A stretch of 40,773 nt of DNA from an uncultured Gammaproteobacteria bacterium (GCA_964532865.1 CAZHJA010000001.1:1-40773); one strand, 5' to 3'; counted from the first letter of the stretch, positions 1 to 40,490 are shown. Numbers and translations: made by a program. The notes: a model not told the origin generated them from the letters alone.

Positions 1-60
1 TATTCTTGAAAGAACTTTCAGATTATCTTCTAGAATAAGAATTGTTTTGCTTAATGTCAT
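1..60 (-). CDS. Partial CDS running off the left edge; the N-terminus resembles a response-regulator receiver domain
   Basis: My own minus-strand translation from the ATG at 58-60 gives MTLSKTILILEDNLKVLSRI. The ILILEDN pattern is typical of receiver-domain N-termini. Only 20 codons are visible. Confidence 0.3.
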   Translation of the reverse strand, partial: MTLSKTILILEDNLKVLSRI

Positions 61-219
61 ATTGTTGTGTGAGTATTATGATTATCTTACCAAAAATTGA
101 CAAAATAAGATGAATAGTGGTAAAGACGTAATGACTATATTAACTAGTAAAGAAGATGAAACCTTACCTACTTCTATATATGGAGAACTTTCTGTTAAAT
201 AGCTTTTGTGTTTCACGAC

Positions 220-597: not shown

Positions 598-736
598 TTT
601 AATTCACTTTAATTTTCATTATTACTATATTTTACCTGATTTGTTCATTTTATGTTCATCCGCTCTGAAGTATAGAATCAGCCTTAAAGCAAATCTAAAT
701 CTCTATTAATTTCGGTATTTTGGTATAGTAGCAATT

Positions 737-2209: not shown

Positions 2210-2258
2210 CTAAGTCCTTTTGAGTTAAAAAATAATAAGTTTTTTATTTTGTTCCACT

Positions 2259-2513
2259 TTATTTATTACTACTTGACAAAACTACTATAAAAAATCCAAG
2301 AGGAATCAAAATCATAAGTGCTATCACTACATAAAGAAACGCCTTCAAAATTTTGTAAGCTACTTTGTAACGTTTATATAATCCATGTTTTTTCAACTTC
2401 TCTTCGGCTTTCTGAACCAACGAATCTTTTATAGGAGGTAAAACATACCAACAGATATATAAAAGGATACCCGTTACACCTCCGATAATAATTTTTTTAA
2501 ATACCTTTTCCAT
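2259..2513 (-). CDS. Small two-TM membrane protein, hypothetical
   Basis: 84-aa ORF with two hydrophobic segments flanking a basic loop (KKHGLYKRYKVAYK). It lies directly downstream, on the minus strand, of a structured GC-rich spacer. Confidence 0.5.
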   Translation of the reverse strand: MEKVFKKIIIGGVTGILLYICWYVLPPIKDSLVQKAEEKLKKHGLYKRYKVAYKILKAFLYVVIALMILIPLGFFIVVLSSSNK

Positions 2514-2536
2514 ATGTCTTTTATTGGCAGAGACAT

Positions 2537-2642
2537 AAAAAAGCTCCCCGCCAGCTAGTAATCTTTTCAGATCACCATATTCCTTTCGGAATACGACCTA
2601 CCACAGGTTTGCTAGACGAGGAGCTCTCGCTCCTGTGGTAGG
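2537..2642 (-). ncRNA. Candidate structured RNA element (leader, complex terminator or sRNA) between the HTH gene and the 84-aa membrane protein gene
   Basis: A perfect 11-bp stem pairs cctaccacagg (2597-2607) with cctgtggtagg (2632-2642). On the minus strand there is a 6-bp hairpin with a GAAA loop (2578-2593). A 10-bp long-range pairing joins 2615-2624 to 2543-2552. It has two C-A mismatches on the plus strand that become G-U pairs on the minus strand. It is followed by U6 (2537-2542). The spacer is clearly more GC-rich than its flanks. Confidence 0.3.
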
Positions 2643-2698
2643 ATATTTATGCCATGCTCTATTTTGTAGAGTTTAGGCACTCTAATTATTAATCTTAG

Positions 2699-2881
2699 CT
2701 AAATCTTTTTATTCTTAATAAAATCTATTAGATCATTTTTATGATATCTTCTATCTCCTCTTTTACCAAAACGAATTGCTTTTAATAAACCATCTTTATC
2801 CCATTTACGAAGAGTGTTTGGGTGAACATTTAGAAGTTCTACTGCTTCTGAAAGTTTTATTAATTTGTTGTCTTTTTTCAT
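2699..2881 (-). CDS. Excisionase/MerR-type helix-turn-helix DNA-binding protein
   Basis: The 60-aa sequence LSEAVELLNVHPNTLRKWDKDGLLKAIRFGKRGDRRYHKNDLIDFI matches the excisionase-family HTH pattern (TLxxW...G.L...R....RRY...DL..F). Confidence 0.7.
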   Translation of the reverse strand: MKKDNKLIKLSEAVELLNVHPNTLRKWDKDGLLKAIRFGKRGDRRYHKNDLIDFIKNKKI

Positions 2882-2976
2882 TAAACCTTAATTTAACATT
2901 TGCTAACATTAATATACAACATTTTTGCTAAAATAGAAAGTGCCTAATAATTTAGGAATGATAATTAAAAATTAAA

Positions 2977-4185
2977 ATGAGTATGACGCCGAGAGAGAAA
3001 TCTATAGAGACGATCATTGCCGATTTGGAGACTAAATACGAAGAGACTATTAATGAACCTTCCAAAAATAACTTCTTTCTTAAGATAGCGGATTATGGTA
3101 AGTATCTTCTGGAAAGCAAGATTCTTGCATCTATCCTTAAACCTCTACCCAGACAAGCAAAGGAAGATCTAGAGAACTATAATGAAAAAAGAGATAGCTT
3201 TATTGAAAAATGGAAACAGTTAGTAAAAGACATACTGGGTAAAGTTGAAAAAACAGGAATAAAAGATCATCCTACAAGTCCTTTTATAAACCAGATTAAT
3301 CAGCTTAAAGGAAGATTTGACCAAGTTGAAACCTCATATTTTGAAGAAAATATTGATTATTTCTATCAACCCTACCAAGAGTTGATAGACAAATTTCGTA
3401 AGGAAGGGAAAGTAAAACTTATAAAAAACCACATATCTGAAGATAGACGTTGCCCCATGCTATTTAAAAAATATAACGAGGCTTGTACTGAATGGGGGGA
3501 ATTTAAGCGTTTAAGGGAAAACGCAGTATGGTGGGCTCATTACAACATTGAAAGATTGGCTTGCGGAGTACTGGGTTTAGAAAGGGCTAAAAGCTATTTC
3601 AAAAGGGATAACTATATAGATGATATGTATGGGTTTGAGTTCAAACAAATTACTAAGGGCAATAGCTCTGTCTTTCTCAGAAAGAAACGTTTTGAGAAGT
3701 GGTTGAAACGATTGCATAGATTCTTAATACCTAGGCTTGAATCTTACAGAAAAACACTGTCAGAATCTAAAGAAAGACACGGTCAACTTATAAATGAAAT
3801 CAAGGATGGAACAAAGGATCCCACCATACATTCTCAAGAAGATGCTCAAGAACACAGAAAACTTACGCTCCCCTCTGGTTGCAAGCTCGTAGAAGAAGAT
3901 AATCTTCTGAAAATCAGAAAGAATAAAACAGTCATCTTCACTTTCCCAAACAATTGGTCAAATAAGTGTAGATATTTTAAGTGCTTATGGGAAAACTATG
4001 GAATTAAGATGAGTTATAAGGAAACTTACGAATTTAATTCAAATCTCAAATACCCAGAAAAAAGTGTGTGGCGATTAAATCGTAATATGCGAGGGACTAT
4101 TAACAAGCTAAGAAAAGAGTTTAAAAATAAAAATCTGCCTCTGTCCATAGAAACGAATAAGGGTTTTACTCTAATAATCTCCTAA
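2977..4185 (+). CDS. Hypothetical protein; the C-terminal ~100 aa resemble an OmpR/PhoB-type winged helix
   Basis: 402-aa ORF. The C-terminal pattern FKCLWENYGIKMSYKE...RLNRNMRGTINKLRKEF...LSIETNKGFTLI resembles the Trans_reg_C consensus (L..N.G...S...L...........I..LRKKL.....I.T.RG.GY.L). The N-terminal part is unassigned. Confidence 0.45.
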   Translation: MSMTPREKSIETIIADLETKYEETINEPSKNNFFLKIADYGKYLLESKILASILKPLPRQAKEDLENYNEKRDSFIEKWKQLVKDILGKVEKTGIKDHPTSPFINQINQLKGRFDQVETSYFEENIDYFYQPYQELIDKFRKEGKVKLIKNHISEDRRCPMLFKKYNEACTEWGEFKRLRENAVWWAHYNIERLACGVLGLERAKSYFKRDNYIDDMYGFEFKQITKGNSSVFLRKKRFEKWLKRLHRFLIPRLESYRKTLSESKERHGQLINEIKDGTKDPTIHSQEDAQEHRKLTLPSGCKLVEEDNLLKIRKNKTVIFTFPNNWSNKCRYFKCLWENYGIKMSYKETYEFNSNLKYPEKSVWRLNRNMRGTINKLRKEFKNKNLPLSIETNKGFTLIIS

Positions 4186-4291
4186 CTTCTTCAATTACCG
4201 TCAAAAGGTTCTAAAAAGTTCTAATCTGCCCCAATTGACTAGCTAATATCTTGTTTTAAAATTAAATCAACATCTAATTTATGTAATTATT

Positions 4292-4546
4292 ATGAATCAA
4301 CAAAAATTAAACGCTAACAATTATTACTCTACTTCCGACCTTGCGTTAGCAACAGCTCTTTCTCTTTTTTATGCCCTAGAGACAATTGATCGCACCAATC
4401 CCCGCAAAGCCCAGTTTCTATTCAAGCGAGACGAAAACCTAAACCAACTCATTGAGAATTTTTGGAGAGGTCAATTAAAAGTTAATCCTATTGTCTATTT
4501 TAATCAAAAAAAGATGATTAAGGCAAGGCTCTACGGAGAAAAATAA
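4292..4546 (+). CDS. DUF5659-like small protein
   Basis: The 84-aa sequence YSTSDLALATALSLFYALETIDRTNPRKAQFLFKRDENLNQLIENFWRGQLKVNP fits the DUF5659 pattern as I remember it from phage and CPR proteins. Confidence 0.55.
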   Translation: MNQQKLNANNYYSTSDLALATALSLFYALETIDRTNPRKAQFLFKRDENLNQLIENFWRGQLKVNPIVYFNQKKMIKARLYGEK

Positions 4547-4548
4547 AT

Positions 4549-4704
4549 ATGGTTAGTCAAAGTCTTATTAAGGAGTTGAGAACGATTATAAGAGAAGACT
4601 ATAGTGTAGAACTGGAGATGAAAGAGATAAAAGAGATCGCAGACACTCTTGTAAATTATTTTGACATTTTATCAGAAGTTGAATATCAAAAGTATGTTAA
4701 ATAA
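4549..4704 (+). CDS. Small hypothetical ORF (51 aa), not in the supplied track
   Basis: My own translation is MVSQSLIKELRTIIREDYSVELEMKEIKEIADTLVNYFDILSEVEYQKYVK. The ATG is 2 nt after the stop of the previous gene, and the ORF overlaps the ATG at 4694 of the next gene. That packing is typical of translational coupling. Confidence 0.35.
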   Translation: MVSQSLIKELRTIIREDYSVELEMKEIKEIADTLVNYFDILSEVEYQKYVK

Positions 4705-6130
4705 TAAACAATTGGAGTTTTTGATAACACTTAAAGAACATCACTTAATAGAATACTTAAAGAACAGATCATTTGAGGAATTGTCCGCCATAACAACTGA
4801 TATAAAAGCCTGTACACTGCCTATTAATGGTCTTTCTAATCAACAAAGAGAAAAATATCTTACAACACTATCTTATGTTGAAGCTCAATTAAATGCGATT
4901 GCTCAAAGTCAAAATAGAGATGACGACTTTGAATTTATTGACACATCACAATTCAATCCGATGACATCAACTGAGCTTATTAAGATTTTAGGTCTAACCA
5001 TAAAAAGAGATGAAATAAACAAACTTATAACGTTTATGACTTGTATTTCAGCTTTTACAGAAGATTCTCAGCTTAATATGAGTTTTAATGCTCCATCCTC
5101 AAGCGGTAAATCTTATATTCCAATTGAAATTGCAACGCTCTTTCCTTCAGAAGATGTTATTGAAGTTGGATATTGTAGTCCAACAGCCTTTTTTCATAGT
5201 TACGGAGCCTTTGATAAAGAAAAACAGGGTTATATTGTAGACCTATCACGAAAGATTCTTATATTTCTTGATCAACCACACCAACAATTATTAGCTCATC
5301 TACGACCTACACTATCTCATGACAAGAAAGAGATGGTTATAAAAATCACTGACAAAACCCAAAAGTTCGGGCTCAAAACAAAAAATATATATATTATTGG
5401 TTATCCTTCTGTAGTATTTTGTACAGCAGGACTCAAGATAGACGAACAGGAAGCTACAAGACTACTACTTTTGTCTCCAGAAATAAGCCAAGAGAAGATT
5501 CGGGACGCTGTTATGGAAAAAATAAGAAGAGAATCTGATAAGAGAAGTTATTACGAAGCATTATACGAAAATCCAGAACGAACTCTTCTGAAGCTACGAA
5601 TAAAAGCTATAAAACGGGAGGCTGTCAGTGATATTGTTATAAAGAATCATGAACTTGTTGAGCAGATGTTCTTTAAAAGAATTAATAAACTGAAGCCTAA
5701 ACACCAAAGAGACATGGGTAGAATTATTAATCTTGCAAAGCTGTTTGCCCTTCTTAATCTATGGCATAGAGATAGGGATAACGATACTATCTTTGTAAGC
5801 GATGAAGATATAAAAGAAGCCTTTTCTGTCTGGGACACTATTGCACCAAGTCAAGAGTTAAATTTACCTCCCTACGTGTATAATCTTTACGAAGATATTA
5901 TTGTTGGAGCGTATAAAGAGAAAAATGACGATGCGGGAACTGTTGGTATAGATTCTGAAGGATTAACTAAGGCTGAGATTCAAAAGAAGAATTATGATGT
6001 TCAAGGGCGCTTTTTACCCGACTGGCAACTTAGACAACAGATACTACCAATGCTTGAGACAGCTGGACTTATAAGAATTGAGTCTGATCCTAAAGATAGA
6101 AGAAAAATATTGATTTATCCTATTATTTAA
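4694..6130 (+). CDS. P-loop NTPase with a C-terminal MarR-like winged helix; candidate replication or initiator protein of the element
   Basis: It has a Walker A motif (APSSSGKS), a Walker-B-like motif (KILIFLDQ) and a C-terminal LIRIESDPKDRRKILIYP wHTH-like motif. I prefer the ATG at 4694 over the track's TTG at 4661. Confidence 0.55.
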   Translation: MLNNKQLEFLITLKEHHLIEYLKNRSFEELSAITTDIKACTLPINGLSNQQREKYLTTLSYVEAQLNAIAQSQNRDDDFEFIDTSQFNPMTSTELIKILGLTIKRDEINKLITFMTCISAFTEDSQLNMSFNAPSSSGKSYIPIEIATLFPSEDVIEVGYCSPTAFFHSYGAFDKEKQGYIVDLSRKILIFLDQPHQQLLAHLRPTLSHDKKEMVIKITDKTQKFGLKTKNIYIIGYPSVVFCTAGLKIDEQEATRLLLLSPEISQEKIRDAVMEKIRRESDKRSYYEALYENPERTLLKLRIKAIKREAVSDIVIKNHELVEQMFFKRINKLKPKHQRDMGRIINLAKLFALLNLWHRDRDNDTIFVSDEDIKEAFSVWDTIAPSQELNLPPYVYNLYEDIIVGAYKEKNDDAGTVGIDSEGLTKAEIQKKNYDVQGRFLPDWQLRQQILPMLETAGLIRIESDPKDRRKILIYPII

Positions 6131-6256: not shown

Positions 6257-7852
6257 ATGAGGAGCATTTTATTTTGCAGAGTTTCAAGCAAGGAACAAGA
6301 AGACGAAGGCTATAGTCTACCCTCTCAAGAAAAATTGCTTAAAGATTATGCAGAAAAGAATCATTTAGAGATAGTTAAGGTATTTTCAATATCTGAAACT
6401 GGAAGTAAAAGTGATCAGAGAAAAACCTTCAAAGAGATGTTAGATTTTATAAAGAAAAATGATATTAAAGTTTTAGTGTGTGAAAAAACAGATAGGTTGC
6501 TTAGGAATAAAAAGGATGCAGTAAAAATAGATGAATGGATGAATGATAATGCAGATAGAAGTGTCCATTTCGTAAAAGAAAGCTCCGTTTTGCATAGAGA
6601 CTCAAAATCCCACGAAAAGTTTATATGGAATATACGAGTGAGCGTTGCACAGTTTTATACAGATAATCTTTCGGAAGATGTTAAAAAAGGTCAGGTAGAA
6701 AAAATAGCTCAAGGTTGGCTTCCAACAAAACCGCCAACAGGCTACAAAACCATTGGAGAAAAAGGACATAGAATTCACGTAACAAATGAGGACGTTTCTC
6801 CTCTTGTAATCAAAATGTTCCAGCTCTATGAGTCTGGAGAATATTCAGTTAAAAGACTTACTGATAAAATGTTTGAACTTGGCTTAAAAAATCTTAATGG
6901 TAATAAGATATGTAAAAGTAGGATTCATATCTTGTTACAAGAAATTTTCTATATAGGAAAAATAAAGTGGAATCGCCAGATATATCAAGGAGAACATAAA
7001 CCCATAATAGATAGAGACTTGTTTGATTGTGTTCAAAAACGGCTCAAAGGCAAAACTACTTCTCGTTATCAAAAACACAACCACTTATTTACTGGTCTAA
7101 TGAAATGCTTTGAATGTGGCGGTAGTGAATCTTGGGAAATTCATAAAGGAATTGTTTATGGACACTGCAATCATTACAGAAATTGTACCCAGAAGGTATG
7201 GGTAAGAGAAGATAAAGTAGAAAATCAGATTATTGCTGTATTGGATAAGCTTAAAATAATAAATCAAAGAATAACCGAATGGATTAAAAAAGCACTATTA
7301 GAACATCATAAGAAAAATATTGAATGTCGGGACAGCTCGGTTGAACAGCTTAATAGTAGAGTTAAACAGATTCAAATTAAGTTAGATAATTTATATGACG
7401 ATAAAGTCTCTATCCAGATAACTAAAGAGTTTTATAATAAAAAATTTCAACAATATTCAGATGAGCTTGATAAAGCTGAGAGACAACTAAGTAAACAGTC
7501 AAAAAACAATATGCAATATTACCAGCTTGGCATAAATTACTTTGATCTTGCTCAAAAGGGCTCTCTAATTTATAAAAGAGCAAAAAAAGAACAAAAAAGA
7601 CTTCTTCTTAAGCTTGTATTCAAGAATATGCAACTTAATGAAGGATTTTTATCCTTTAAGCTAACTAGAGCTTTTGAGATACTTTCTGAAATCGCAAAAG
7701 AGGTTAATAGTTCGAAAGTGCTTATAAAAGTTAAAGATCCTAATAGTATTTCCGAACTTGATAGAAAGATTAATACAACAAGCCAAATGATACAATATTT
7801 TGCTCTTCGTCCAGCCCTGCTCCCCCGAGTGGATTCGAACCACCAACCTTGA
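6257..7852 (+). CDS. Large serine recombinase (integrase)
   Basis: The N-terminal resolvase catalytic domain (ILFCRVSSKEQEDEGYSLPSQ with the catalytic Ser, DRLLRN) is followed by a recombinase domain. A Cys/His zinc module (CFECGG...GHCNHYRNC) and a coiled-coil region come next. The last 11 codons (LLPRVDSNHQP) are the antisense of tRNA-Asn. Confidence 0.9.
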   Translation: MRSILFCRVSSKEQEDEGYSLPSQEKLLKDYAEKNHLEIVKVFSISETGSKSDQRKTFKEMLDFIKKNDIKVLVCEKTDRLLRNKKDAVKIDEWMNDNADRSVHFVKESSVLHRDSKSHEKFIWNIRVSVAQFYTDNLSEDVKKGQVEKIAQGWLPTKPPTGYKTIGEKGHRIHVTNEDVSPLVIKMFQLYESGEYSVKRLTDKMFELGLKNLNGNKICKSRIHILLQEIFYIGKIKWNRQIYQGEHKPIIDRDLFDCVQKRLKGKTTSRYQKHNHLFTGLMKCFECGGSESWEIHKGIVYGHCNHYRNCTQKVWVREDKVENQIIAVLDKLKIINQRITEWIKKALLEHHKKNIECRDSSVEQLNSRVKQIQIKLDNLYDDKVSIQITKEFYNKKFQQYSDELDKAERQLSKQSKNNMQYYQLGINYFDLAQKGSLIYKRAKKEQKRLLLKLVFKNMQLNEGFLSFKLTRAFEILSEIAKEVNSSKVLIKVKDPNSISELDRKINTTSQMIQYFALRPALLPRVDSNHQP

Positions 7853-7891
7853 AGTTAACAGCTTCCTGCTCTACCGTTGAGCTACAGGGGA
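7820..7891 (-). tRNA. tRNA-Asn(GTT): tRNA-Asn (anticodon GTT); CCA not encoded
   Basis: Manual fold of the reverse complement: acceptor TCCCCTG/CGGGGGA, D arm GCTC-AACGGTA-GAGC, anticodon arm GGAAG-CTGTTAA-CTTCA, T arm GGTGG-TTCGAAT-CCACT, discriminator G. Confidence 0.9.
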
Positions 7892-12345: not shown

Positions 12346-12420
12346 TGCCTTATTTTAATATAATAATGTAAATAGTATTAATAATTGAAAATTTGTTTAG
12401 ATTACCCTATATTATTATAT

Positions 12421-13011
12421 ATGCATAAAAAGAATTCCGTGTTAATGGTAATTATGATATTCTTTCTTCTTTTTGTATTTTCAAAGAATATATTTGCCAC
12501 AACCTATGATCTTTATTTACCTGAAGGACCATATAATCGTGGTGATGAATTTCAATTAACAATAAGTGTAGACACTGAAGGAAATTCAATTGAATCTGCT
12601 GAGATAGGATCAACATATGATACAGAGTTTCTGGAATTTTTAACAGTAACTCCTGGAGATACATTTTCAACTGTTACCGCAACGCCTCTTGGAGGAGGTG
12701 AATTAATGATTTCTGCGTCAAACACATCAGGATTTTCAGGCCAAGGTACATTTGCATATATTAATTTTAAAATAATTGCTTCTGCTCCTGGTGCAACAGA
12801 AATATGTACCCTTTGGGAGCCTTCTCCAACAACACCTCCAGGTCAACCAACAACACAACCAAGAACACCTCCAGGTCAACCAACAACGCCTCCTCAGCCA
12901 ACGCCTGGAAATGAAAAGCCATTTCTATATATAGCTATTGGAGGATTACTCTTTGTTCTTACTGCCTCAGGTGCGTTTGCTTTTTTAAATTCAAAAAGGA
13001 ATAATTCTTAA
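12421..13011 (+). CDS. Secreted cohesin-like domain protein with a P/T-rich stalk and a C-terminal TM anchor
   Basis: A signal peptide (MHKKNSVLMVIMIFFLLFVFSKNIFA) is followed by a beta-rich domain with FQLTISVDT...AEIGSTYDTEFLEFL...GTFAYINFKIIA, a cohesin-like pattern. The PPGQPTT repeats, a hydrophobic helix and the basic tail NSKRNNS come next. I prefer the ATG at 12421 over the track's TTG at 12385. Confidence 0.5.
   Translation: MHKKNSVLMVIMIFFLLFVFSKNIFATTYDLYLPEGPYNRGDEFQLTISVDTEGNSIESAEIGSTYDTEFLEFLTVTPGDTFSTVTATPLGGGELMISASNTSGFSGQGTFAYINFKIIASAPGATEICTLWEPSPTTPPGQPTTQPRTPPGQPTTPPQPTPGNEKPFLYIAIGGLLFVLTASGAFAFLNSKRNNS
12832..12887. repeat. Two perfect 23-nt direct repeats with a 33-nt period, encoding the TPPGQPTT stalk
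   Basis: acacctccaggtcaaccaacaac occurs at 12832-12854 and again at 12865-12887. Confidence 0.85.
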
Positions 13012-18339: not shown

Positions 18340-18352
18340 GCTGTTCTACGAG

Positions 18353-18750
18353 TGGAGATGCCGGGAGTTGAACCCGGGTCCGAAAAAACACTAATATAAA
18401 TGTTTAGTTAGAGATAGAATATTTTAACTTTTGTGTCTTTTTAAGAAAATATTCAAAGCTTAAATAGACTGCCAATTATATGTTTTCAAGCCTTTTAACC
18501 AATTGGGAATGTTAAAAAGCCTTACCTTGATTGGTTTTCCCTTCTTAGATTGAATCAAGGGAAATCTAAAAAGAGTTTATTAAAGCTAATTATGCTTCAA
18601 GAAATGCAAAGTTTGCACTCCTACTATAAGCCATAGCTTCGTAAGCTTCTGCTTTATCAGCGTCTGCATTTAAAATTTTTCCTATTTACGGATAAGTCCG
18701 CCCTAACCATTTGTAAAAGTGCAAGTTTTCCGTCGATACCTATCATCCCC
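18353..18750 (-). ncRNA. ssrA: tmRNA (SsrA)
   Basis: The reverse complement starts GGGGATGATAGGTATCGACGG and ends GGACCCGGGTTCAACTCCCGGCATCTCCA. This gives a tRNA-Ala-like acceptor with a G3:U pair and a T arm. An internal tag ORF reads GCA GAC GCT ... AAC TTT GCA TTT CTT GAA GCA TAA (…SANFAFLEA*). Confidence 0.9.
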
Positions 18751-19199
18751 TAGCTCTTTAAATATTCTTTCATTTCTCTTTTTTCTTCTCTTATTATATC
18801 CTGTTTTTTTTCTTGCTTTTTCCTTTCAATATCTCCTTTTCCTTTAACCAAAGCTATTTTAAGCTTAATTAAATTACCCTTATTATAGCAGCCTATAGGC
18901 GCTATTGTCAATCCAGGAGAAGAGCTTATTTTTGTTTTTAATCTAATTAATTCTTTTTTATGAAGCAAAAGTTTTCTAGTTTTTTTTGAATCATATTCAT
19001 GTGGCCTTGCAAACTTATATACAGATATTTCTGCATTAATAAGATAGGCTTCATTATTAATAATCTTTACAAAAGAATCATCAAGAAGCATCCTTCCTGC
19101 TCTAACAGACTTAACTTCTGCACCCAAAAGCTCTATTCCCGCTTCATATTCTTCAATGCTTTTAAATTTTCTTGAAAATTTTCTATTAATTATTTTCAT
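18750..19199 (-). CDS. smpB: SsrA-binding protein SmpB
   Basis: It has GIELLGAEVKSVR, FVKIINNEAYLINAEISVYKF, RKLLLHKKEL and a basic C-terminal tail. Its stop codon overlaps the first base of ssrA. Confidence 0.9.
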   Translation of the reverse strand: MKIINRKFSRKFKSIEEYEAGIELLGAEVKSVRAGRMLLDDSFVKIINNEAYLINAEISVYKFARPHEYDSKKTRKLLLHKKELIRLKTKISSSPGLTIAPIGCYNKGNLIKLKIALVKGKGDIERKKQEKKQDIIREEKREMKEYLKS

Positions 19200-30498: not shown

Positions 30499-31185
30499 TT
30501 ATCCTTTTGCAATTGTTATTGCATAAACAGAAATAAAGTCATTTTCTTTTAATGTCTTTGAGGCTTCTTTAAGAGTAGATCCTGTTGTTAATATGTCATC
30601 AACTAGAATAATGTTTCTCCTATCCGTCTCATTGTCTTTAATAACACCAAAAGAATCTTTAATATTTTTATATCTCTCATATCCTTTTCTTAAACTTGCC
30701 TGGCTATTTGTTTTTTTTACTTTAATTAGTTTGTTAATAATTGGAATATCAAGATATGTGCTTAAAAATTTGGAAATTATCTCTGTTTGATTAAATCCTC
30801 TTAATTTTAAGCTTTTTTTGTACAAGGGGATGGGCTGAATAAAAAACTTATGCTTGTTTTTTGAAAAAAAGGCAAGCTTATAAAGCAGATCTGAAGAAAG
30901 CTCTTTTTTAAAGTCTTTCCAAACATCAACGGCAAGCTGGTATTTAACAGCGCTAATAACTTTTTTTAATATTAAATTATAATGGAAAAAAGAAATTGCT
31001 CCATCTAAACCATATTTTCTTTTACAAAATTCATGAGTTAATCCATATTTGCTGTATTTATTACAATAAATACAAACGTCTCTATTAATTGGGATTAACT
31101 TTTTCCTGCATTTTATACAAAGATAAGTCCCTATTTTCTTACAACCCACACAAAATTTGGGAAATAATATATCTTCAAGAATCAT
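30499..31185 (-). CDS. comF: ComF family phosphoribosyltransferase-domain protein
   Basis: It has N-terminal CxxC pairs (CVGCKK..CIKCRKK..CIYCNK) and the C-terminal PRTase motif ILVDDILTTGSTL. Confidence 0.8.
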   Translation of the reverse strand: MILEDILFPKFCVGCKKIGTYLCIKCRKKLIPINRDVCIYCNKYSKYGLTHEFCKRKYGLDGAISFFHYNLILKKVISAVKYQLAVDVWKDFKKELSSDLLYKLAFFSKNKHKFFIQPIPLYKKSLKLRGFNQTEIISKFLSTYLDIPIINKLIKVKKTNSQASLRKGYERYKNIKDSFGVIKDNETDRRNIILVDDILTTGSTLKEASKTLKENDFISVYAITIAKG

Positions 31186-31476: not shown

Positions 31477-31923
31477 ATGCATTGTATATTTTGCAAAAAT
31501 AAGGAGTCGGAGGTAATTGAAACCAGACTATCTGATGATGGTACAACAGTACGAAGGAGAAGAAGGTGCTTAAAGTGCCAAAAAAGGTTTACAACTTATG
31601 AAAGAATTGAAGAATTGCCTATACTAGTAATTAAAAAAGATGGAAGGCGAGAAAGGTTTAATAGAGAAAAGCTGAGAAATGGAATTTTAAAAGCATGTGA
31701 AAAAACATCAGTTGGAATTGATCAGGCTGATGAGATTATCTCGAATATTGAAAGAAAAATAAAACAACAGGATTCAACAGAAATTGAAAGCAAACTTATA
31801 GGAAAACTTGTTGCAAAAGAATTAAAAAAAATTGACAAGGTTTCATATATCCGGTTTGCCTCGGTTTTTAAAAGATTTATTGAAGTAGAAGATTTTGAAA
31901 AAGAAGTAAAAAAATTATTGTAA
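31477..31923 (+). CDS. nrdR: Transcriptional repressor NrdR
   Basis: It has MHCIFCKNKESEVIETR...RRRRRCLKCQKRFTTYE (zinc ribbon) and an ATP-cone. Confidence 0.92.
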   Translation: MHCIFCKNKESEVIETRLSDDGTTVRRRRRCLKCQKRFTTYERIEELPILVIKKDGRRERFNREKLRNGILKACEKTSVGIDQADEIISNIERKIKQQDSTEIESKLIGKLVAKELKKIDKVSYIRFASVFKRFIEVEDFEKEVKKLL

Positions 31924-31939: not shown

Positions 31940-34270
31940 ATGAAGTTGTCCAGATTAGCTGAAAAGGTATTTAAAGATAGGTACTCGTTAAAAGATAAAA
32001 AGGGGGAGCCTATTGAAAAAACACCTTTGCAAATGTGGAAAAGAGTAGCAAAAGCAGTTTCCAAAATTGAAAAAAAGAAAAATCAAGATTATTGGGAAAA
32101 TCAGTTTTATACTGTAATGGAGGGCTTTAAATATGTGCCTGGAGGAAGAATCTTAGCAGGAGCAGGTGGTGGTTTTTCAATAACCTATTATAATTGTTTT
32201 GTACTTCCTTCTCCTAAAGATTCAAGAGGAGGAATTCTTGAGTCTTTGGGGCAAATGGTTGAAATCATGGCAAGAGGAGGGGGTGTTGGAATTAATTTAT
32301 CTTCACTTAGACAAAGAGGTGCTAGGGTTAGAAAGGTAAATGGGTTTTCTTCTGGTCCATGCAATTGGGGAGAGCTTTTTTCTCTTACCACAAAAGAAAT
32401 TATCCAGCAAGGAGGAACAAGAAGAGGTGCGTTAATGCTTATGCTTAATGACTGGCATCCTGATATTGAAGAGTTTATTACAATAAAAAAAGACCTTCAA
32501 AAAATGACAGGCGCAAATCTCTCTCTTGCTATTTCAGATTCTTTTATGAATGCAGTAGAAAAAAACGCTGACTGGCCACTTGTTTTTCCAGACATTAAAG
32601 ATCCTGAATATGATGAAAAGTGGGATGGTGATTTAATAACATGGAAAAAAATGGGTAAAAAAGTTATTGTTCATAAGATTGTAAAGGCAAGAGAAATATG
32701 GGATCTTGTTGCTCAGGCAGCTTGGCAATCTGCAGAGCCTGGAGTTGTATTTATGGAAAGATATAATAAACTGCATAATAATTACTATTGGAATAGAATA
32801 AATTGTGTAAATCCATGTGGAGAAGAAGGCTTGCCTCCATGGGGAGTTTGTAATCTTGGATCTATTAACTTATCTTCCCTTGTAAAGTCAAAGAACATTG
32901 ATAAAAAGGGAGAGTTTGATTTTAAAGCATTAAAAGAAATTGTAAAAACAGCTGTTCGTTTTCAAGATAATGTTATTGAAATGGATCCATATTTTTTTGA
33001 TGGTATAAAAGAGGTCCAGCTTAAAGGAGAAAGAAGAATAGGGTTGGGAACAATGGGTCTTGGAGATGTGCTTATCAAGATGCATTTAAGATATGGGTCT
33101 AAAGAATCTCTTAAGTTTATAAACAAAGTGTATTCAACTATTAGAGATGAAGCATATAAAAGCTCTGTTTGCTTAGCAAAAGAAAAAGGGGCCTTTCCTA
33201 AATTTGATAAAAAATATTATTTAAAAGGCAAGTTTATTCAAAAACTTCCAAAGCCTCTTCAAAAAGAGATAAACAATAATGGAATTAGAAATTCTATTCT
33301 TCTTATGCAGGCTCCAACAGGATCAACTTCCCTTATGGCAAATACAACTTCCGGAATTGAACCTGTTTTTGAATTTGAATTTATAAGAAGAGATAGATTA
33401 GGAACACATATTCTGCGCCATCATTTATTTGAAGAGTGGCATAAAAAGCATAAAAAAGAAATAAAAGAAGGAAAAATAAAAAAACCTAAGTGGTTTGTTT
33501 CTGCAAATAATCTTACTCCAGAAGATCATGTAAATGTACAAGCAACTATTCAAAAATATATTGATGCCTCTATTTCAAAGACGGTAAATGCTCCACAAAC
33601 GCATACAGTTAAAGATGTAAAAAAACTTTATACTTTAGCATACAAGCTTGGGCTTAAAGGAATGGCATATATGAGAGAAGGTTCAAGACAGGGGGTTTTA
33701 GAAAGGAAAAAAAGTAAAGAAAAAGATAAAAAAATACCAAGCTACACTGTAAAACCAAGACCTGCGGTTGTTAATGGATCTACATATAAAGTAAATACCC
33801 CTGTTGGGGTTGCTTTTATTACAATTAATACTAATGGAAAAGGGGAGCCTCTTGAAGTATTTATTAATGTTGGCAAGGCAGGATCAGATGTATATGCAAT
33901 GGCAGAAGGATTAGGAAGAATAATCTCTCTTGCTCTTAGGTTTGCTTCTCATATACCTGCCCAAGAAAGAATTGAACAAATAGTAGATCAACTTAAAGGA
34001 ATTGGAGGAACAAGAACATTAGGCTTTGGAAAAAACAAGGTAAAAAGCTTCCCTGATGCTGTAGCAAAGACAATATCATTGCACTTTAATAAAAAAGAGG
34101 CTGATAAAAAAGATGAAATAACAGTTACTCAAACAACGCAACCATCTCTTCTTAATGGAAACGGGCACAAAATGGCCTCATATGATATATGTCCAAATTG
34201 TGGCGAGGCTTCGCTTGTACATGAAGAAGGGTGTAAAAAATGCTATATCTGTGGGTATAGCGAATGTTAA
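31940..34270 (+). CDS. nrdJ: Class II (adenosylcobalamin-dependent) ribonucleotide reductase
   Basis: It has VNPCGEEGLPPWGVCNLGSINL, APTGSTS, ISKTVN and a C-terminal Cys cluster (CPNCGE...CKKCYICGYSEC). Confidence 0.9.
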   Translation: MKLSRLAEKVFKDRYSLKDKKGEPIEKTPLQMWKRVAKAVSKIEKKKNQDYWENQFYTVMEGFKYVPGGRILAGAGGGFSITYYNCFVLPSPKDSRGGILESLGQMVEIMARGGGVGINLSSLRQRGARVRKVNGFSSGPCNWGELFSLTTKEIIQQGGTRRGALMLMLNDWHPDIEEFITIKKDLQKMTGANLSLAISDSFMNAVEKNADWPLVFPDIKDPEYDEKWDGDLITWKKMGKKVIVHKIVKAREIWDLVAQAAWQSAEPGVVFMERYNKLHNNYYWNRINCVNPCGEEGLPPWGVCNLGSINLSSLVKSKNIDKKGEFDFKALKEIVKTAVRFQDNVIEMDPYFFDGIKEVQLKGERRIGLGTMGLGDVLIKMHLRYGSKESLKFINKVYSTIRDEAYKSSVCLAKEKGAFPKFDKKYYLKGKFIQKLPKPLQKEINNNGIRNSILLMQAPTGSTSLMANTTSGIEPVFEFEFIRRDRLGTHILRHHLFEEWHKKHKKEIKEGKIKKPKWFVSANNLTPEDHVNVQATIQKYIDASISKTVNAPQTHTVKDVKKLYTLAYKLGLKGMAYMREGSRQGVLERKKSKEKDKKIPSYTVKPRPAVVNGSTYKVNTPVGVAFITINTNGKGEPLEVFINVGKAGSDVYAMAEGLGRIISLALRFASHIPAQERIEQIVDQLKGIGGTRTLGFGKNKVKSFPDAVAKTISLHFNKKEADKKDEITVTQTTQPSLLNGNGHKMASYDICPNCGEASLVHEEGCKKCYICGYSEC

Positions 34271-34291: not shown

Positions 34292-34816
34292 ATGGTAATA
34301 TATACAAAAAAAGGGGACAAGGGAAAAACATTTCTTTATGGAGGAGATGAGACGTGGAAGTCAGATATTCGAATTGAGGCTTATGGAAGCGTTGATGAAT
34401 TAAACAGCTTTCTTGGTTTGGTTGGGGAGAAAATAAAGGAAGAAAAGTATAAAAAGCTTATTATAAAAGTCCAAAGAGATCTACATATAATTATGAGTCT
34501 TTTGTCTCAAGGCAAGACAAGAAAAACAGAATTAAAAAATAATACAAAATTATTTGAACAAGAAATAAATAATATTGAGTCACAACTGCCAAAACTCAAT
34601 AGTTTTATTTTACTATCAGGAAGCGAAATATCATCATGGTTTCATATATTAAGAAGCATTTGTAGAAGGGTTGAAAGAAATATTGTTAGATGCTTTCAAG
34701 ATGAGGAGGATATAAAAAAGTGGAAATTAGATGCATTGTCATATTTTAATCGCCTATCTGACTTGTTTTTTATGCTAGCAAGATATTATAATAAACAAAA
34801 AGAAATTAAAGTTTGA
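34292..34816 (+). CDS. pduO: PduO-type ATP:cob(I)alamin adenosyltransferase
   Basis: It has IYTKKGDKGKT..L and IEAYGSVDELNSFLG. It also has the C-terminal RSICRRVER and LNRLSDLFF motifs. Confidence 0.85.
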   Translation: MVIYTKKGDKGKTFLYGGDETWKSDIRIEAYGSVDELNSFLGLVGEKIKEEKYKKLIIKVQRDLHIIMSLLSQGKTRKTELKNNTKLFEQEINNIESQLPKLNSFILLSGSEISSWFHILRSICRRVERNIVRCFQDEEDIKKWKLDALSYFNRLSDLFFMLARYYNKQKEIKV

Positions 34817-34861
34817 TAAAAAATACAAAAAAATATTAATTAATTATTAAATCATAAAGCT

Positions 34862-34975
34862 GTCTTGGTAAAGCTATAAGTAAAAGCTTTTCTAACTAGG
34901 GAACACTGTGAAATTCAGTGGCTGTGCCGCAGCGGTTAAAGTCCGAAGACCGACCAAGATCTGCTCCCCGAGCAG
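34862..34975 (+). promoter_or_regulatory. Cobalamin riboswitch (compact form lacking the large peripheral extension) with an RBS-proximal hairpin
   Basis: P1 pairs tcttggt (34863-34869) with accaaga (34953-34959). A hairpin pairs aaagct with agcttt (34870-34890). Conserved blocks align to E. coli btuB: UAGGGAA, CACUG-UGAAAUU-CAGUG (btuB CCAGUGCGAAUCUGG) and GCUGUGCCGCAGCGGUUAAAG (btuB GCUGACGCGCAGCGGUAAGG). The B12 box is AGUCCGAAGACCGACC (btuB AGCCCGAAGACCUGCC). The hairpin ctgct-ccccg-agcag (34961-34975) abuts the purine-rich RBS (gggaaaaat) before the ATG at 34984. Confidence 0.85.
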
Positions 34976-34983
34976 GGAAAAAT

Positions 34984-36081
34984 ATGGAAAAGTTAACTAT
35001 AAAGAGGCCTGATATTAATGCATTTTCTATTGAAGATGAACGTAGTGCAAAAAGAAGTGTAATTTCTAAAGATATTGAATCATATCTTGGAGAATATAGA
35101 TTTGAACTTTCTGTATATGAATATAAGCTTGCATTAAATAATTATGGAGAAATTTGCAGTGTGTTTGATAATGAACCAATGCGTACAAAAGGAGAAAGAG
35201 CAATAAAAAAAAGAAAAAAACAAGGAGTAAGCGTTAACAGAGAAATGGCAGATCTTAAAGGAATGATGTCTTTAGAAGACCAGCTTAAAGAACGTGAAAA
35301 CGGAAACTCTATTTTGTGGATTAGTCCTCCTGGACCAGGAAGTCAAGGATATGGTGATTATGGATTTATCTATGCTGGAAAAAGGTATGAAGATACTATT
35401 TTTATGACTGCAATCCGTATAGAGCATCCAACTATTGAACAGTTTAATCATGCCTACTCTCAAATAACAGGAAAAAGTGTAAGATATCAAAGCGCAGAAG
35501 ACTTTATTGCAAATCCAATAGTATTACCTACAGATCCTAAACAATTTGAAACCCACCTAGATAATGTTTTACAAGATATTTTTACTTTTGAAAATGTTCA
35601 AGAAAATGTTAATGCGTTTAATAATGCCATGCCTATTTTAAAACCACTAATAAATCATTTTGTTGACATGGTTGAACAAGGAAAGTCCGAACAAGAACTT
35701 AAGGTTATATTAAATGCAATTGAAAATTATGCAATAGAGTTAAAAGATAGGGCTTTAAATAAACCATATGAGCTTTATCAAGAAGTAGAAAAAAAACCTG
35801 ACTTTAAACAAATAATTTACCAATATGGATATAAAAAGCCCGCACCTGTTGCCGGAAGCTGTGGAAGCACGTCGTCTGATAAGAGCTCTACATTAAAAAG
35901 CAATAATGTATTTGACTTATTTTCATCATTAAAAGATCTTTTTTCTGAAAAAAAAGAGAGAAAATTTATTTGTCCAAATTGTAAAGCAGAGTTAACGCCT
36001 CCTGTTGGTAATGAGTGCCCTGAGTGTGGAATGACAAAAAAGAAGTGGGCTGAACAAAGTAAAGAACCCATTTGTAATTAA
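34984..36081 (+). CDS. Uncharacterised soluble protein (366 aa) with a C-terminal zinc ribbon, directly controlled by the cobalamin riboswitch
   Basis: The ATG at 34984 lies 5-10 nt after a purine-rich RBS. The track's GTG at 34918 lies inside the riboswitch core. The protein has no TM segment or signal peptide. Motifs are ILWISPPGPGSQGYGDYGFIYAGK and CPNCKAELTPPVGNECPECG. Confidence 0.7.
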   Translation: MEKLTIKRPDINAFSIEDERSAKRSVISKDIESYLGEYRFELSVYEYKLALNNYGEICSVFDNEPMRTKGERAIKKRKKQGVSVNREMADLKGMMSLEDQLKERENGNSILWISPPGPGSQGYGDYGFIYAGKRYEDTIFMTAIRIEHPTIEQFNHAYSQITGKSVRYQSAEDFIANPIVLPTDPKQFETHLDNVLQDIFTFENVQENVNAFNNAMPILKPLINHFVDMVEQGKSEQELKVILNAIENYAIELKDRALNKPYELYQEVEKKPDFKQIIYQYGYKKPAPVAGSCGSTSSDKSSTLKSNNVFDLFSSLKDLFSEKKERKFICPNCKAELTPPVGNECPECGMTKKKWAEQSKEPICN

Positions 36082-36120
36082 CAATCAACATTAACTTAAT
36101 TTTTCTTTTATAATAAATAT

Positions 36121-36558
36121 ATGAGTCAATATAACTACACACCAATTGATGAAATTGTTAAAAAGTATGAAGAAGAAACAGAAAAATATTCTGCAACCAT
36201 TGAATCAGAACCAATACAAGAAGAGCCACCAATCCATGGTGCTGAGTATAGTGAAATGAAACAGGTTGTTGAGCACGAGCCTGATAAAGAAGTAGAAAAA
36301 CATGTTAGAAAAAGACATGAAAAAGTAAGGCTTGATAAGGAATTAAAAGGGGCAGGAGTAGAAACAACAGAACATATAAAATTTCAACAATATGATGATA
36401 TTAAGCTTCCAATATCCGACGAAAATGTTTTAAAAGGTCTTCATAAGCCCATATCTTCATCTTGGAGATGGCTTTCAACACTAGCTGTGTATATTTTAAA
36501 AAAAGCACATCTTACTTTAAAAAGCGTGGGGGGTAAAATTATTAGAGCAAAAACTTAA
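36121..36558 (+). CDS. Uncharacterised acidic protein with a conserved-looking C-terminal amphipathic or TM segment
   Basis: 145-aa ORF with KLPISDENVLKGLHKPISSSWRWLSTLAVYILKKAHLTLK near the C-terminus. It lies 39 nt downstream of the riboswitch-controlled gene on the same strand. Confidence 0.5.
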   Translation: MSQYNYTPIDEIVKKYEEETEKYSATIESEPIQEEPPIHGAEYSEMKQVVEHEPDKEVEKHVRKRHEKVRLDKELKGAGVETTEHIKFQQYDDIKLPISDENVLKGLHKPISSSWRWLSTLAVYILKKAHLTLKSVGGKIIRAKT

Positions 36559-36878
36559 TCTTTCTTAACTTTGTTTATTTCCTCAATTGTGTCCTCTTTG
36601 CTTTTTACTCCAACAAATTGTGAAACAACTTTACCGTCTTTGAAGATATGAAAACTTGGAATAGAAGATATTGAGTACACAGAAGCCAAACTTCCATTTT
36701 CATCTACATTAACTTTTACAAAATTCACGTCTTTCATTTCTTCTGATAATTCATCAAGCATTGGAGACATAATCTTACAAGGGCCACACCAGTTAGCATA
36801 AAAATCTACAAAAACAATACCTTTTTGCTCTATTACCTCTTTTTTAAACTCATCACTATTAATATCTTTTGCTGACAT
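36555..36878 (-). CDS. trxA: Thioredoxin
   Basis: It has the WCGPCK active site in a 107-aa thioredoxin fold. Confidence 0.92.
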   Translation of the reverse strand: MSAKDINSDEFKKEVIEQKGIVFVDFYANWCGPCKIMSPMLDELSEEMKDVNFVKVNVDENGSLASVYSISSIPSFHIFKDGKVVSQFVGVKSKEDTIEEINKVKKD

Positions 36879-39500: not shown

Positions 39501-40490
39501 TCATCTTAGCGCATAGCGTACGCCTCGAGTTGAACCAAGTTTTTTAATTAAACCTTTTTTTATAAGCTCCCGAAGATCATAATGCAAACTGCTATTTGGT
39601 ACTTTAATAAATCTACGTTTAATAAAATTAAAAGAGACCATCCCATGATTTCTAACTATTTCCCAAATCTCTCGTCGTCTTGGAAGAAGAGTGTCTTCTA
39701 GTCTTTCTTCTTTAATATCTTTTAAATTATTAATCGTCTTTTCTGCCTGTTCTGCAAGCGCTTCTAAAAAAAACTCAATAAATCTTGTAATATCTATTTT
39801 GGAGATTGCAAGAAGATCATAATATACCTGTTTATTTCTTTCAAGATATTCTTCTAATGAAACGAGTCCTCGGAAATCAGATTGACCTTGCTTAAGAATA
39901 AAAGTGGACAGCAATCGACCAACACGGCCATTTCCATCTAGAAAAGGATGAATTTTTTCGAAACCAAAATGAAAAAGCGCCATCTTAATATACTTAGTTT
40001 CGCGAGAGGATTTTGTTCGGTTAATTAATGTTTTTATAAGTTCAGAGATTTTATTTGGGGGTGGAGGAAGATAAACTGCAATTCCGGCTTGATTAAATAT
40101 TGCCGAAACTTCTTTTCTAAAAATGCCCGCAGAAGGAGAAATATTTTTCATTACCATCTTGTGCAATTTTAAAATGAGACCAATACTGAGAGTTTTAGGA
40201 GACTGAGAAGAATATAACCAGTGAAGAGCATCAAGGATATTAAAGACTTCAATTTTCTCAAGATTGTTTGTTTTTGATCTTTCACTGACGAAACGAACAT
40301 CCTCGTAATGCAGTTTGCTCCCTTCAATGCGAGCTGAGAAAAGAGAGCTTTTAAGAAATGATTTTCTCTGAAGAGTTCTTTCAATATGCGGCAATTGTGG
40401 TAAAAGCTCAATAACTTTTTTAGCAATTTCTAATCTTTTAAGACAATTTTCTATTTTCTTGTTTTTTTTGTATCTATAATCTAATAACAT
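39501..40490 (-). CDS. fic: Fic family protein (AMPylase-type) with an N-terminal inhibitory motif and a C-terminal winged helix
   Basis: It has the Fic core HPFLDGNGRVGRLL and an inhibitory-helix motif SARIEG that fits (S/T)xxxE(G/N). The C-terminal GMVSFNFIKRRF...LRELIKKGLIKKLGSTRGVRY is wHTH-like. Confidence 0.88.
   Translation of the reverse strand: MLLDYRYKKNKKIENCLKRLEIAKKVIELLPQLPHIERTLQRKSFLKSSLFSARIEGSKLHYEDVRFVSERSKTNNLEKIEVFNILDALHWLYSSQSPKTLSIGLILKLHKMVMKNISPSAGIFRKEVSAIFNQAGIAVYLPPPPNKISELIKTLINRTKSSRETKYIKMALFHFGFEKIHPFLDGNGRVGRLLSTFILKQGQSDFRGLVSLEEYLERNKQVYYDLLAISKIDITRFIEFFLEALAEQAEKTINNLKDIKEERLEDTLLPRRREIWEIVRNHGMVSFNFIKRRFIKVPNSSLHYDLRELIKKGLIKKLGSTRGVRYALR

Follow-up and report, generated by a model that had tools for sequence, protein, structure and literature searches.

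The window analysed here is the whole 40,773-nucleotide (nt) stretch of contig CAZHJA010000001.1 (assembly GCA_964532865.1), and the element in question is a cobalamin riboswitch that lies in it between pduO and an uncharacterised gene, FamA. The genes nrdR, nrdJ, pduO, FamA and FamB follow one another on the + strand, with nrdJ and pduO adjacent, and they are met by a convergent trxA whose stop codon overlaps that of FamB in TTAA at 36555-36558 (Table 1). This overlap had been recorded in a first-pass annotation of the window, made from the sequence alone, which gave FamA a length of 366 amino acids (aa) where we found 365. NrdJ, a class II ribonucleotide reductase (RNR) that depends on adenosylcobalamin (AdoCbl), is the consumer of the B12 cofactor in the cluster and the sole B12-dependent enzyme that we noticed in the window and in the identified genes of related loci. 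By its sequence, the element is an OFF-type cobalamin riboswitch inside a polycistronic nrdR-nrdJ-pduO-FamA-FamB cluster of a Microgenomates (Patescibacteria) genome, and it is well supported that FamA and FamB form an undescribed B12-linked module.

The identification of the aptamer was straightforward. The Rfam covariance model RF00174, whose gathering score is 31.5, matched it on the + strand with 50.7 bits (E=6.7e-10 over the whole window and 3.9e-12 over the local stretch), as the first-pass annotation had expected, and the core blocks named there are all visible between 34862 and 34961. The P1 helix pairs GUCUUGG (34862-34868) with CCAAGAU (34955-34961), GGGAA lies at 34899-34903, the CACUG/CAGUG hairpin at 34905-34921, the L5-bearing stem is GCUGUGCCGCAGC with the L5 GCCG inside it at 34926-34929, and the B12 box AGUCCGAAGACCGACC occupies 34940-34955. 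The large peripheral extension that had been reported as lacking is P6, where 2 nt stand in place of 71 model positions; the P2 arm is retained. Given that the AdoCbl-selective Cbl-I class is recognised by a large P6 (P7-P11) extension plus a P2 arm, the missing P6 extension places the window element outside that class, and its combination of a P2 arm with a minimal P6 is structurally closest to the P6-minimal classes (Cbl-II) and to the promiscuous "hybrid" type of Bacillus subtilis yvrC (PMC7367189). The ligand is presumably a corrinoid, and nothing in the sequence favours one form of it over another. In 46 orthologous riboswitch copies, 99.2% of the cells were paired over eight modelled pairs (two helices were modelled), with 111 compensatory cells, and the covariation score was 0.76 compared with 0.14 for shuffles (0 of 500 as high) and at most 0.14 with the partners slid. 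The minimum-free-energy fold of the leader had a z-score of -0.98, which is uninformative for a ligand-dependent tertiary fold. A scan for a promoter of the riboswitch unit returned promoter-like sites at or below the level of shuffles, with none on the + strand in 34816-34860. The element is a new member of a known family and shares with clan CL00101 the four-way junction core, the B12 box, the L4 T-loop hairpin and, by its sequence, a kissing loop between L5 and L13 through which the ribosome-binding site is buried. Unlike the clan, it is operon-internal and follows nrdJ-pduO instead of standing in a 5' leader, and the family that it regulates is uncharacterised.

The expression platform is equally recognisable. 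The 3' arm of hairpin P13, GGGA, is the Shine-Dalgarno (SD) sequence of FamA and lies 5 nt 5' of the ATG at 34984; sequence and folding both bear out the small hairpin that had been placed against this start. Folding also predicted a competing hairpin, CUGCUC (34961-34966) with GAGCAG (34970-34975), in which the SD is free. A P13-type hairpin, with a CGNGCN loop and a stem of at least 3 bp, occurs in 34 of 47 riboswitches, compared with an expectation of 0.017 per 162 nt or about 0.8 over all 47, and the L5 GCCG, complementary to the 5'-CG(N)GC-3' of the hairpin loop, is present in 42 of the 47 copies. An L5-L13 kissing loop is a feature of all cobalamin riboswitch classes (PMC7367189), and these motifs point to a platform of that kind here. 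It comes in two forms. The translational form, found in the window and about a dozen loci, has the motif yCCC-CGAGCA-GGGA-N5-AUG, with the 3' arm serving as SD. The terminator form, with a U tract of at least six in 29 of the 47 copies, reads CUUC-CGAGCA-GAAG followed by CUCCUC...GAGGAG-U7-AUG, so that the 3' arm of the intrinsic terminator doubles as the SD; in this form the UUCCGAG of P13 is complementary to the CUCGGAA of the terminator and could act as an antiterminator. Both forms are predicted to be OFF switches.

In the switching mechanism that we propose, a bound corrinoid would lead the aptamer L5 (GCCG) to kiss L13 (CG-A-GC) of the hairpin just downstream, and the kissed P13 would hide the GGGA of FamA and turn its translation off. 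Without ligand, the CUGCUC/GAGCAG hairpin (34961-34975) would form and leave the SD accessible. In many sister genomes, P13 would promote the intrinsic terminator and so turn off the whole downstream unit. FamA and FamB would be produced when B12 is scarce, as salvage genes are. A terminator scan found no terminator-like sites between pduO and the aptamer, in line with the first-pass annotation, and none on the + strand in the FamA-FamB stretch. The earlier claim that the riboswitch gates two proteins stands for the 365-aa gene, which is directly gated; any control of the 145-aa gene in the window would be indirect.

The association of this riboswitch with FamA extends well beyond the window. 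We fetched 49 FamA loci, each from a different GTDB species, and built a covariance model, R1, from 16 riboswitches of these loci. A cobalamin-clan riboswitch (RF00174 or RF01689) was found directly upstream of FamA and on its strand in 27 of the 49 loci at the Rfam gathering score. R1 gave 49 matches in 543 kb searched on both strands; all of them were on the + strand and upstream of FamA or pduO-FamA, and they cover 44 of the 49 loci plus the window, with the five misses having at most 288 nt of upstream sequence. The order nrdR-nrdJ-pduO-FamA is retained in most loci: the synteny of nrdJ is conserved, nrdR lies upstream of it in 29 related loci, and pduO is directly upstream of FamA in 35 of the 49. 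The homologues are thus recurrently preceded by cobalamin riboswitches and sit beside nrdJ-pduO (adjacent in 35 loci), both of which the first-pass annotation had proposed as tests. A convergent trxA likewise follows in L001, L005, L015, L029, L034, L035 and L047. The riboswitch-FamA association is near-universal and the coupling to pduO is real. Our literature search found no paper linking Patescibacteria or Microgenomates with B12 riboswitches, and none describing the riboswitch-FamA-FamB unit.

The position of the riboswitch follows the spacing of the genes. It lies between pduO and FamA when more than about 60 nt separate the two. In 10 loci, the two genes are separated by at most 14 nt or overlap, and in the eight of these with enough upstream sequence the riboswitch lies in the nrdJ-pduO spacer and therefore controls both pduO and FamA. 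One riboswitch before pduO and a second before FamA were found in L007, L012, L020 and L032. The view that the regulated genes fall outside the usual classes of cobalamin riboswitch targets must be qualified, given that in 10 loci the same or a second riboswitch also controls pduO, a salvage gene. FamA and FamB are translationally coupled to pduO in many genomes. The riboswitch is also kept with FamA where nrdJ and pduO are not adjacent (L015, L022-24, L031, L034, L044, L046 and L049). Across species, orthologous riboswitches alternate between RF00174-like and minimal RF01689-like architectures, with or without a P2 arm and a P6 extension, and between the translational and the terminator platform. 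We dismissed the neighbours of FamA in the atypical loci (MurG-like, ComF-like, NUDIX-NMNAT, Band 7, PIN, amine oxidase, PadR and FtsW) as unrelated housekeeping genes, and we did not accept the PduO-FamA fusion P0092 of L014 as Rosetta-stone evidence, given that a search with it returned no second fusion and that its closest relatives, at 68% identity, are unfused. An unannotated 131-aa open reading frame (ORF) without a Pfam match lies between the first riboswitch and pduO in L032 (4437-4832) and is a possible further member of the B12 regulon.

FamA itself belongs to a family without characterised members. No Pfam or NCBIfam family scored above threshold, and sequence and profile searches against the PDB matched only its Cys4 ribbon, at E>=0.09. 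Its relatives form 137 clusters at 90% identity, all annotated as hypothetical, and the named sources are all Patescibacteria (for example Levy- and Roizmanbacteria or Microgenomates). An exhaustive profile search of 1.84 billion representatives returned 146 representative clusters at E<1e-30, nearly all of 340-430 aa, and no member with a known domain. Some members have N-terminal extensions, which lack a Pfam domain and probably reflect start codons miscalled through the riboswitch, as with the 387-aa GTG ORF of the window. An AlphaFold2 model from a 36-sequence alignment (predicted local distance difference test [pLDDT] 81.8, predicted template modelling score [pTM] 0.71) shows an alpha/beta domain (residues 20-200), a helical bundle (206-281), a disordered linker (292-325) and then a small Cys4 knuckle. 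A Foldseek search of the PDB with this model gave a best E of 0.07 with a template modelling (TM) score of at most 0.2, and PDB and BFVD together gave nothing with E<0.007 or TM>0.2; the PAS/GAF, longin and BT_1490 matches were recurrent, weak (probability at most 0.3) and judged to be noise. In the model, the invariant residues (Y34, E37, Y38, R39, Y47, R86, E87, W112, S114, P115, G117, G122, G124, Y126, G127, G132, A143, R145 and E247) cluster on one face of the sheet and the adjoining helices. No His is invariant or nearly invariant among the 36 aligned sequences, and Pfam gave no match to the canonical B12-binding domain (PF02310, DxHxxG His-on). The corrinoid-binding fold or motif that might have been expected in FamA was therefore looked for with Pfam, NCBIfam, the PDB, AlphaFold and Foldseek and not found.

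The conserved cysteines of FamA are concentrated in its tail, which carries an invariant GSCGS (Cys293), the Cys4 knuckle (C330, C333, C345 and C348) and a near-terminal Cys364. All 48 sequences have the motif G[ST]C[GP], 37 have exactly six tail cysteines (the GSCG Cys, four in the knuckle and one near the end) and 40 have a Cys within the last six residues; the folded core is free of Cys in 24 of the 48. The knuckle, whose metal would be Zn or Fe, reads CPNC...CPEC, with C330 and C348 invariant, and its type varies across the family. Pfam ribbon models all fell below gathering (DZR_2, 15.5 vs 27 bits), and the best PDB profile matches of the ribbon, to L37Ae, rubrerythrin and rubredoxin, were weak (E about 0.1). 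Compared with the tail of NrdJ from the same operon, the FamA tail shares CPNC...C..CG (BLASTP E=0.006, a single comparison); we rejected the idea that it is a copy of the NrdJ redox tail, as the likeness is only the generic CxxC...CxxCG. No signal peptide or transmembrane segment was predicted in FamA or FamB.

FamB, which the first-pass annotation had put forward as a partner, is co-conserved with FamA. A profile iterated from the FamB of the window placed it downstream of FamA in 31 of the 49 loci, in a family of 57 clusters that are all standalone and all hypothetical. AlphaFold2 models residues 1 to ~95, which are acidic, with low confidence, and reaches a pLDDT of about 90 only for residues 100-145, where two helices and a beta-hairpin form a C-terminal module carrying the invariant LPISD and W117. 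The "hydrophobic C-terminal segment" described earlier is thus predicted to be a folded module rather than a membrane anchor, and we ruled out a tail-anchored membrane protein on the basis of this small soluble model. Foldseek found no fold matches for the module; the winged-helix-like matches to FamB had E>2.7 and are meaningless.

In seven loci (L002, L014, L015, L016, L021, L034 and L035), the island contains further putative B12 genes. Genes for DUF4430 and DUF6580 lie between nrdJ and pduO in L002, L016 and L021, and the same pair lies immediately upstream of the FamA riboswitch in L015, L034 and L035; in L014, a DUF6580 gene is directly 5' of pduO-FamA. Transcobalamin-type B12 binders have DUF4430 as their C-terminal domain (PMC4350170), and the profile that we built for it matches transcobalamin-1 (E=0.011). 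With the DUF6580 profile, we obtained a match (E=1.4e-4) to an unnamed 182-aa membrane protein, chain A of PDB 6FNP. The 6FNP structure is the energy-coupling factor (ECF) transporter for vitamin B12, ECF-CbrT, of Lactobacillus delbrueckii, whose cbrT is located in an nrdJ-cbrS-cbrT-pduO cluster (PMC5997447). The DUF4430/DUF6580 pair mirrors this cluster, which suggests that Pfam DUF6580 is a CbrT-like family of B12 S-components and that DUF4430, as we assume here, corresponds to CbrS. We found no paper mentioning DUF6580. Given that the DUF4430/DUF6580 island matches the published cluster, the Microgenomates island can be described as the known salvage cluster with an appended riboswitch-FamA-FamB unit. 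The putative uptake genes had no R1 match upstream, and in L034 the upstream spacer is merely 28 nt. FamA co-occurs with the putative importer and does not replace it. In the 40.8-kb window itself, there are no cob, cbi or btu genes and no cbrS- or cbrT-like genes (DUF6580 or DUF4430 ORFs); a stretch of this length is too short to decide on the earlier suggestion that the host is unable to make B12, which stays a conjecture.

Table 1. Positions of the cluster features in the window and of paired riboswitches and DUF4430/DUF6580 genes in related loci
Locus	Feature	Position	Strand	Remarks
Window	nrdR, Zn-ribbon + ATP-cone repressor	31477-31923	+	PF22811 7e-19, PF03477 4e-21; first gene of the conserved cluster
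Window	nrdJ, class II (AdoCbl-dependent) RNR	31940-34270	+	PF02867 2e-124, PF00317, PF12637; TSCPD domain, C-terminal Cys-rich tail
Window	pduO-type ATP:cob(I)alamin adenosyltransferase	34292-34816	+	PF01923 3e-49, TIGR00636 1.4e-46; catalytic domain alone, no PduOC
Window	Cobalamin riboswitch aptamer	34849-34972	+	RF00174 50.7 bits; own model R1 67.4 bits; P2 arm, minimal P6
Window	Expression platform, hairpin P13	34965-34978	+	Predicted stem UCCC 34965-34968 / GGGA 34975-34978, loop L13 CGAGCA 34969-34974
Window	FamA, 365 aa	34984-36081	+	Uncharacterised family; predicted alpha/beta domain, helical bundle, flexible tail
Window	FamB, 145 aa	36121-36558	+	FamA partner; starts 39 nt after FamA
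Window	trxA (thioredoxin)	36555-36878	-	PF00085 2e-30; convergent
L007	Paired riboswitches	3980-4065 and 4694-4777		
L012	Paired riboswitches	5101-5185 and 5785-5886		
L020	Paired riboswitches	5056-5139 and 5752-5860		
L032	Paired riboswitches	4276-4380 and 5475-5599		
L002	DUF4430/DUF6580 genes	4202-5217		
L016	DUF4430/DUF6580 genes	4293-5368		
L021	DUF4430/DUF6580 genes	4363-5358		
L015	DUF4430/DUF6580 genes	237-1147		
L034	DUF4430/DUF6580 genes	4843-5768		
L035	DUF4430/DUF6580 genes	4795-5735		
L014	DUF6580 gene	2-271		

Several other features were observed in the window and the related loci. NrdJ is oversized in two relatives (1137 aa in L016, 1016-4429; 1204 aa in L021, 758-4372) and split into two ORFs in L007 (388-2619 and 2668-3927), which suggests inteins or split genes, and the 912-aa protein P0343 carries PduO and RNR domains in one chain. 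A ComF-like double zinc ribbon protein is encoded divergently upstream of nrdR in the window (30499-31185, -). In L008, a ComF-like gene with an added phosphoribosyltransferase domain (7116-7820) lies just downstream of FamA, and a same-sized 234-aa ORF, not scanned for domains, occupies that position in L027 (7188-7892) and L041 (7036-7740), so the ComF-like gene looks like a recurrent neighbour of the cluster. Group I introns (RF00028, 67-82 bits) lie a few kb from the FamA cluster in L025 (12118-12300, -), L018 (12668-12861, +) and L038 (7094-7287, -), and the one in L018 adjoins a tRNA gene. Elsewhere in the window are a LOOT RNA (RF03000; 2558-2679, -; 79.6 bits vs a gathering score of 46.4) and, within 18350-19199 on the - strand, a tmRNA (96.3 bits) directly downstream of smpB (18750-19199), the two abutting at 18750. 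A large serine recombinase with Resolvase and Recombinase domains (6257-7852, +) overlaps at its 3' end an opposite-strand tRNA (7820-7891), and this overlap may mark the boundary of an integrated element; several ORFs without a Pfam match lie upstream of the recombinase (737-6130). A Fic/DOC-family protein (39501-40490, -) and a cohesin-domain protein (12385-13011, +) have no apparent relation to the riboswitch-FamA finding.

In gene order, the island is closest to a known B12 salvage cluster, formed by the nrdJ-cbrS-cbrT-pduO genes of Lactobacillus delbrueckii (PMC5997447, citing Rodionov 2009). The two share the logic and order of a class II RNR followed by a PduO adenosyltransferase, with DUF4430 and a CbrT-related gene between them in L002, L016 and L021. 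In its published four-gene description, the Lactobacillus cluster has neither FamA nor FamB, whereas Microgenomates append the riboswitch-FamA-FamB unit; the window differs further in having no cbrS- or cbrT-like gene within 40.8 kb. For FamA, three comparisons can be drawn. In eukaryotes, CblC (MMACHC) strips the upper ligand of cobalamin via thiols or flavin, a cysteine of CblD (MMADHC) forms a Co-S complex, and both act upstream of the PduO-type adenosyltransferase MMAB. FamA would occupy the same position between import and a PduO-type adenosyltransferase, and it likewise has an essential-looking cysteine on a flexible segment, but it has no sequence or fold similarity to CblC or CblD, and the analogy is one of function only. 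Salmonella PduO carries an accessory domain, PduOC (DUF336/PF03928), that is needed in vivo for cobalamin transformations and not for adenosyl transfer in vitro (PMC4923194). Like FamA, PduOC is an accessory module with a physical tie to the catalytic domain of PduO, and PF03928 fusions were the commonest PduO architecture among the matches to the PduO-FamA fusion query; it differs in its fold, in binding haem and in being octameric, and FamA is a separate coupled gene with a single doubtful fusion. Class II RNRs receive reducing equivalents from thioredoxin by way of a C-terminal Cys-rich zinc-finger tail that acts as a shuttle, and the FamA tail resembles it in being flexible, in having a Cys4 knuckle and two extra conserved Cys, and in the adjacent thioredoxin gene. 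Unlike the RNR, FamA has a folded core with no conserved Cys to re-reduce, and therefore its tail must act on a ligand or a partner.

We think it probable that FamA and FamB are a lineage-specific pair that forms one functional module with PduO and acts on salvaged corrinoid under an OFF riboswitch. A place in B12 salvage together with PduO is suggested by the predicted B12-repressed expression, the coupling to pduO, the location in the island and the retention of the riboswitch through rearrangements. The likeliest role of FamA would then be intracellular processing, reduction or escort of corrinoid with hand-off to PduO, a mechanism that we infer from gene context and from the analogies with CblC/CblD ahead of MMAB, the redox tail of class II RNRs and PduOC. 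FamA would act on or escort the imported corrinoid in the cell, before or at adenosylation, by removing the upper ligand, by reducing the cobalt, or by transferring the corrinoid to PduO and then to NrdJ, and it would use for this the invariant Cys of its tail, the Cys4 metal knuckle and the terminal Cys. Thioredoxin is a plausible recycling partner of FamA, and FamB could serve as an adaptor, with the small folded module at its C-terminus as the binding part. The chemistry of FamA, its presumed contacts with FamB and with PduO, and the control of FamB in the window are all putative. Of the undescribed corrinoid module proposed in the first-pass annotation, the B12 link stands on the recurrence of the riboswitch and the nrdJ-pduO neighbours, and the ligand removal or hand-off role keeps the status of a proposal.

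Several observations weigh against this salvage role with PduO. FamA lacks a B12-binding motif (it has neither an invariant His nor PF02310) and is unlike CblC, PduS, CobR or any solved fold in the Pfam, NCBIfam, PDB and Foldseek searches. In Lactobacillus, nrdJ-cbrS-cbrT-pduO suffice by themselves, and a further processing protein is thus not a necessity. The only PduO-FamA fusion is a singleton on a 5.3-kb contig, and a 1-nt error of the assembly, where stop and start overlap, could account for it. Given that the switch of the window is translational and FamB has its own start 39 nt past FamA, FamB need not be controlled by it. The yvrC type, which the P2 arm with minimal P6 recalls, is promiscuous, and those relatives that are RF01689-like could be sensors of hydroxocobalamin (HOCbl) or methylcobalamin (MeCbl), as that class includes HOCbl/MeCbl-selective members (PMC7367189). 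If the riboswitches sense HOCbl rather than AdoCbl, the logic of product feedback is weaker.

We also considered what else FamA and FamB might do. An unlikely alternative is that FamA, together with FamB, is a cofactor chaperone or repair factor directed at NrdJ instead of an enzyme that processes corrinoid ahead of adenosylation. It would supply NrdJ with AdoCbl from PduO or clear damaged cob(II)alamin from it, as MeaB/MMAA do for the mutase and PduGH for diol dehydratase. FamA is invariably a member or a neighbour of the nrdJ cluster, no B12-dependent enzyme other than NrdJ was noticed in the window or among the identified genes of the related loci, and the generic likeness of the FamA and NrdJ tails and the convergent trxA would suit such a factor. 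Pfam and NCBIfam, however, found in FamA no G-protein or ATPase motif of the kind that known B12 chaperones and reactivases possess. It is with pduO, not with nrdJ, that FamA is physically coupled, and a factor needed whenever NrdJ works should not be repressed under plentiful B12. Transport is the commonest target of B12 riboswitches, and FamA lies directly 3' of DUF4430 and DUF6580 in L015, L034 and L035 and of DUF6580 in L014, both of which would fit a role in corrinoid acquisition, either as a cytoplasmic receiver or high-affinity sink off an ECF-CbrT-like importer or as an intracellular B12 store. Such a role, which the first-pass annotation had included among its candidates, seems quite unlikely to us: neither FamA nor FamB is predicted to have a signal peptide or transmembrane segment, the putative uptake genes co-occur with FamA and are not under the riboswitch, and the gene overlap involves pduO.

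The OFF logic of the switch would equally suit a B12-independent bypass expressed only without B12, in the way that metE and nrdDG/nrdEF of other bacteria are expressed when B12 is lacking, and FamA is both the most constant riboswitch target of the island and a neighbour of nrdJ. We give this explanation little credence and find that it fits least of the rivals, given that FamA is co-regulated and translationally coupled with pduO, a gene of no use to a cell that lacks corrinoid. In the Pfam, PDB and Foldseek searches, FamA resembled no RNR, no RNR activase and no flavodoxin-like partner, and it is modelled as an alpha/beta domain with a helical bundle rather than an RNR barrel. Finally, the riboswitch could be real and FamA and FamB unrelated to B12, with their association an inherited synteny of one clade. 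The loci all belong to a single class-level lineage, which means that their counts cannot be taken as independent, and the B12 link is one of genomic context. We nevertheless hold this to be highly improbable, as the proteins have diverged to 27-40% identity and the riboswitch changes its architecture, platform and position and follows FamA into at least four unrelated neighbourhoods; rearrangement with the riboswitch-FamA linkage retained indicates selection.

In summary, our analysis describes an operon-internal riboswitch that has been repeatedly reshuffled in architecture, platform and position and yet has stayed attached to the same gene, and FamA adds to the B12 regulon a protein family without detectable fold relatives. 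To our knowledge, the handling of salvaged B12 in bacteria between import and PduO-type adenosylation, including upper-ligand removal, cobalt reduction and protected hand-off, is poorly defined, whereas eukaryotes have the dedicated chaperones CblC and CblD for this interval. FamA and FamB offer a clonable, directly testable handle on this post-import gap. More tentatively, FamA may found a new class of bacterial cobalamin-trafficking or processing proteins with an unseen fold, a prokaryotic counterpart of CblC/CblD by analogy, which we regard as possible though somewhat doubtful. Its Cys-free core would hold the corrinoid, the invariant Cys of its flexible tail, backed by the Cys4 metal knuckle and the terminal Cys and recycled by thioredoxin, would reduce or coordinate the cobalt or strip the upper ligand, and cob(II)alamin would pass to PduO. 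Patescibacteria are ultra-small, mostly uncultured symbionts, and DNA synthesis in those with this cluster depends on the B12-dependent reductase, with the B12 presumably obtained from other organisms. If FamA does belong to such a new class, it would explain how a minimal-genome B12 auxotroph keeps its only ribonucleotide reductase supplied.

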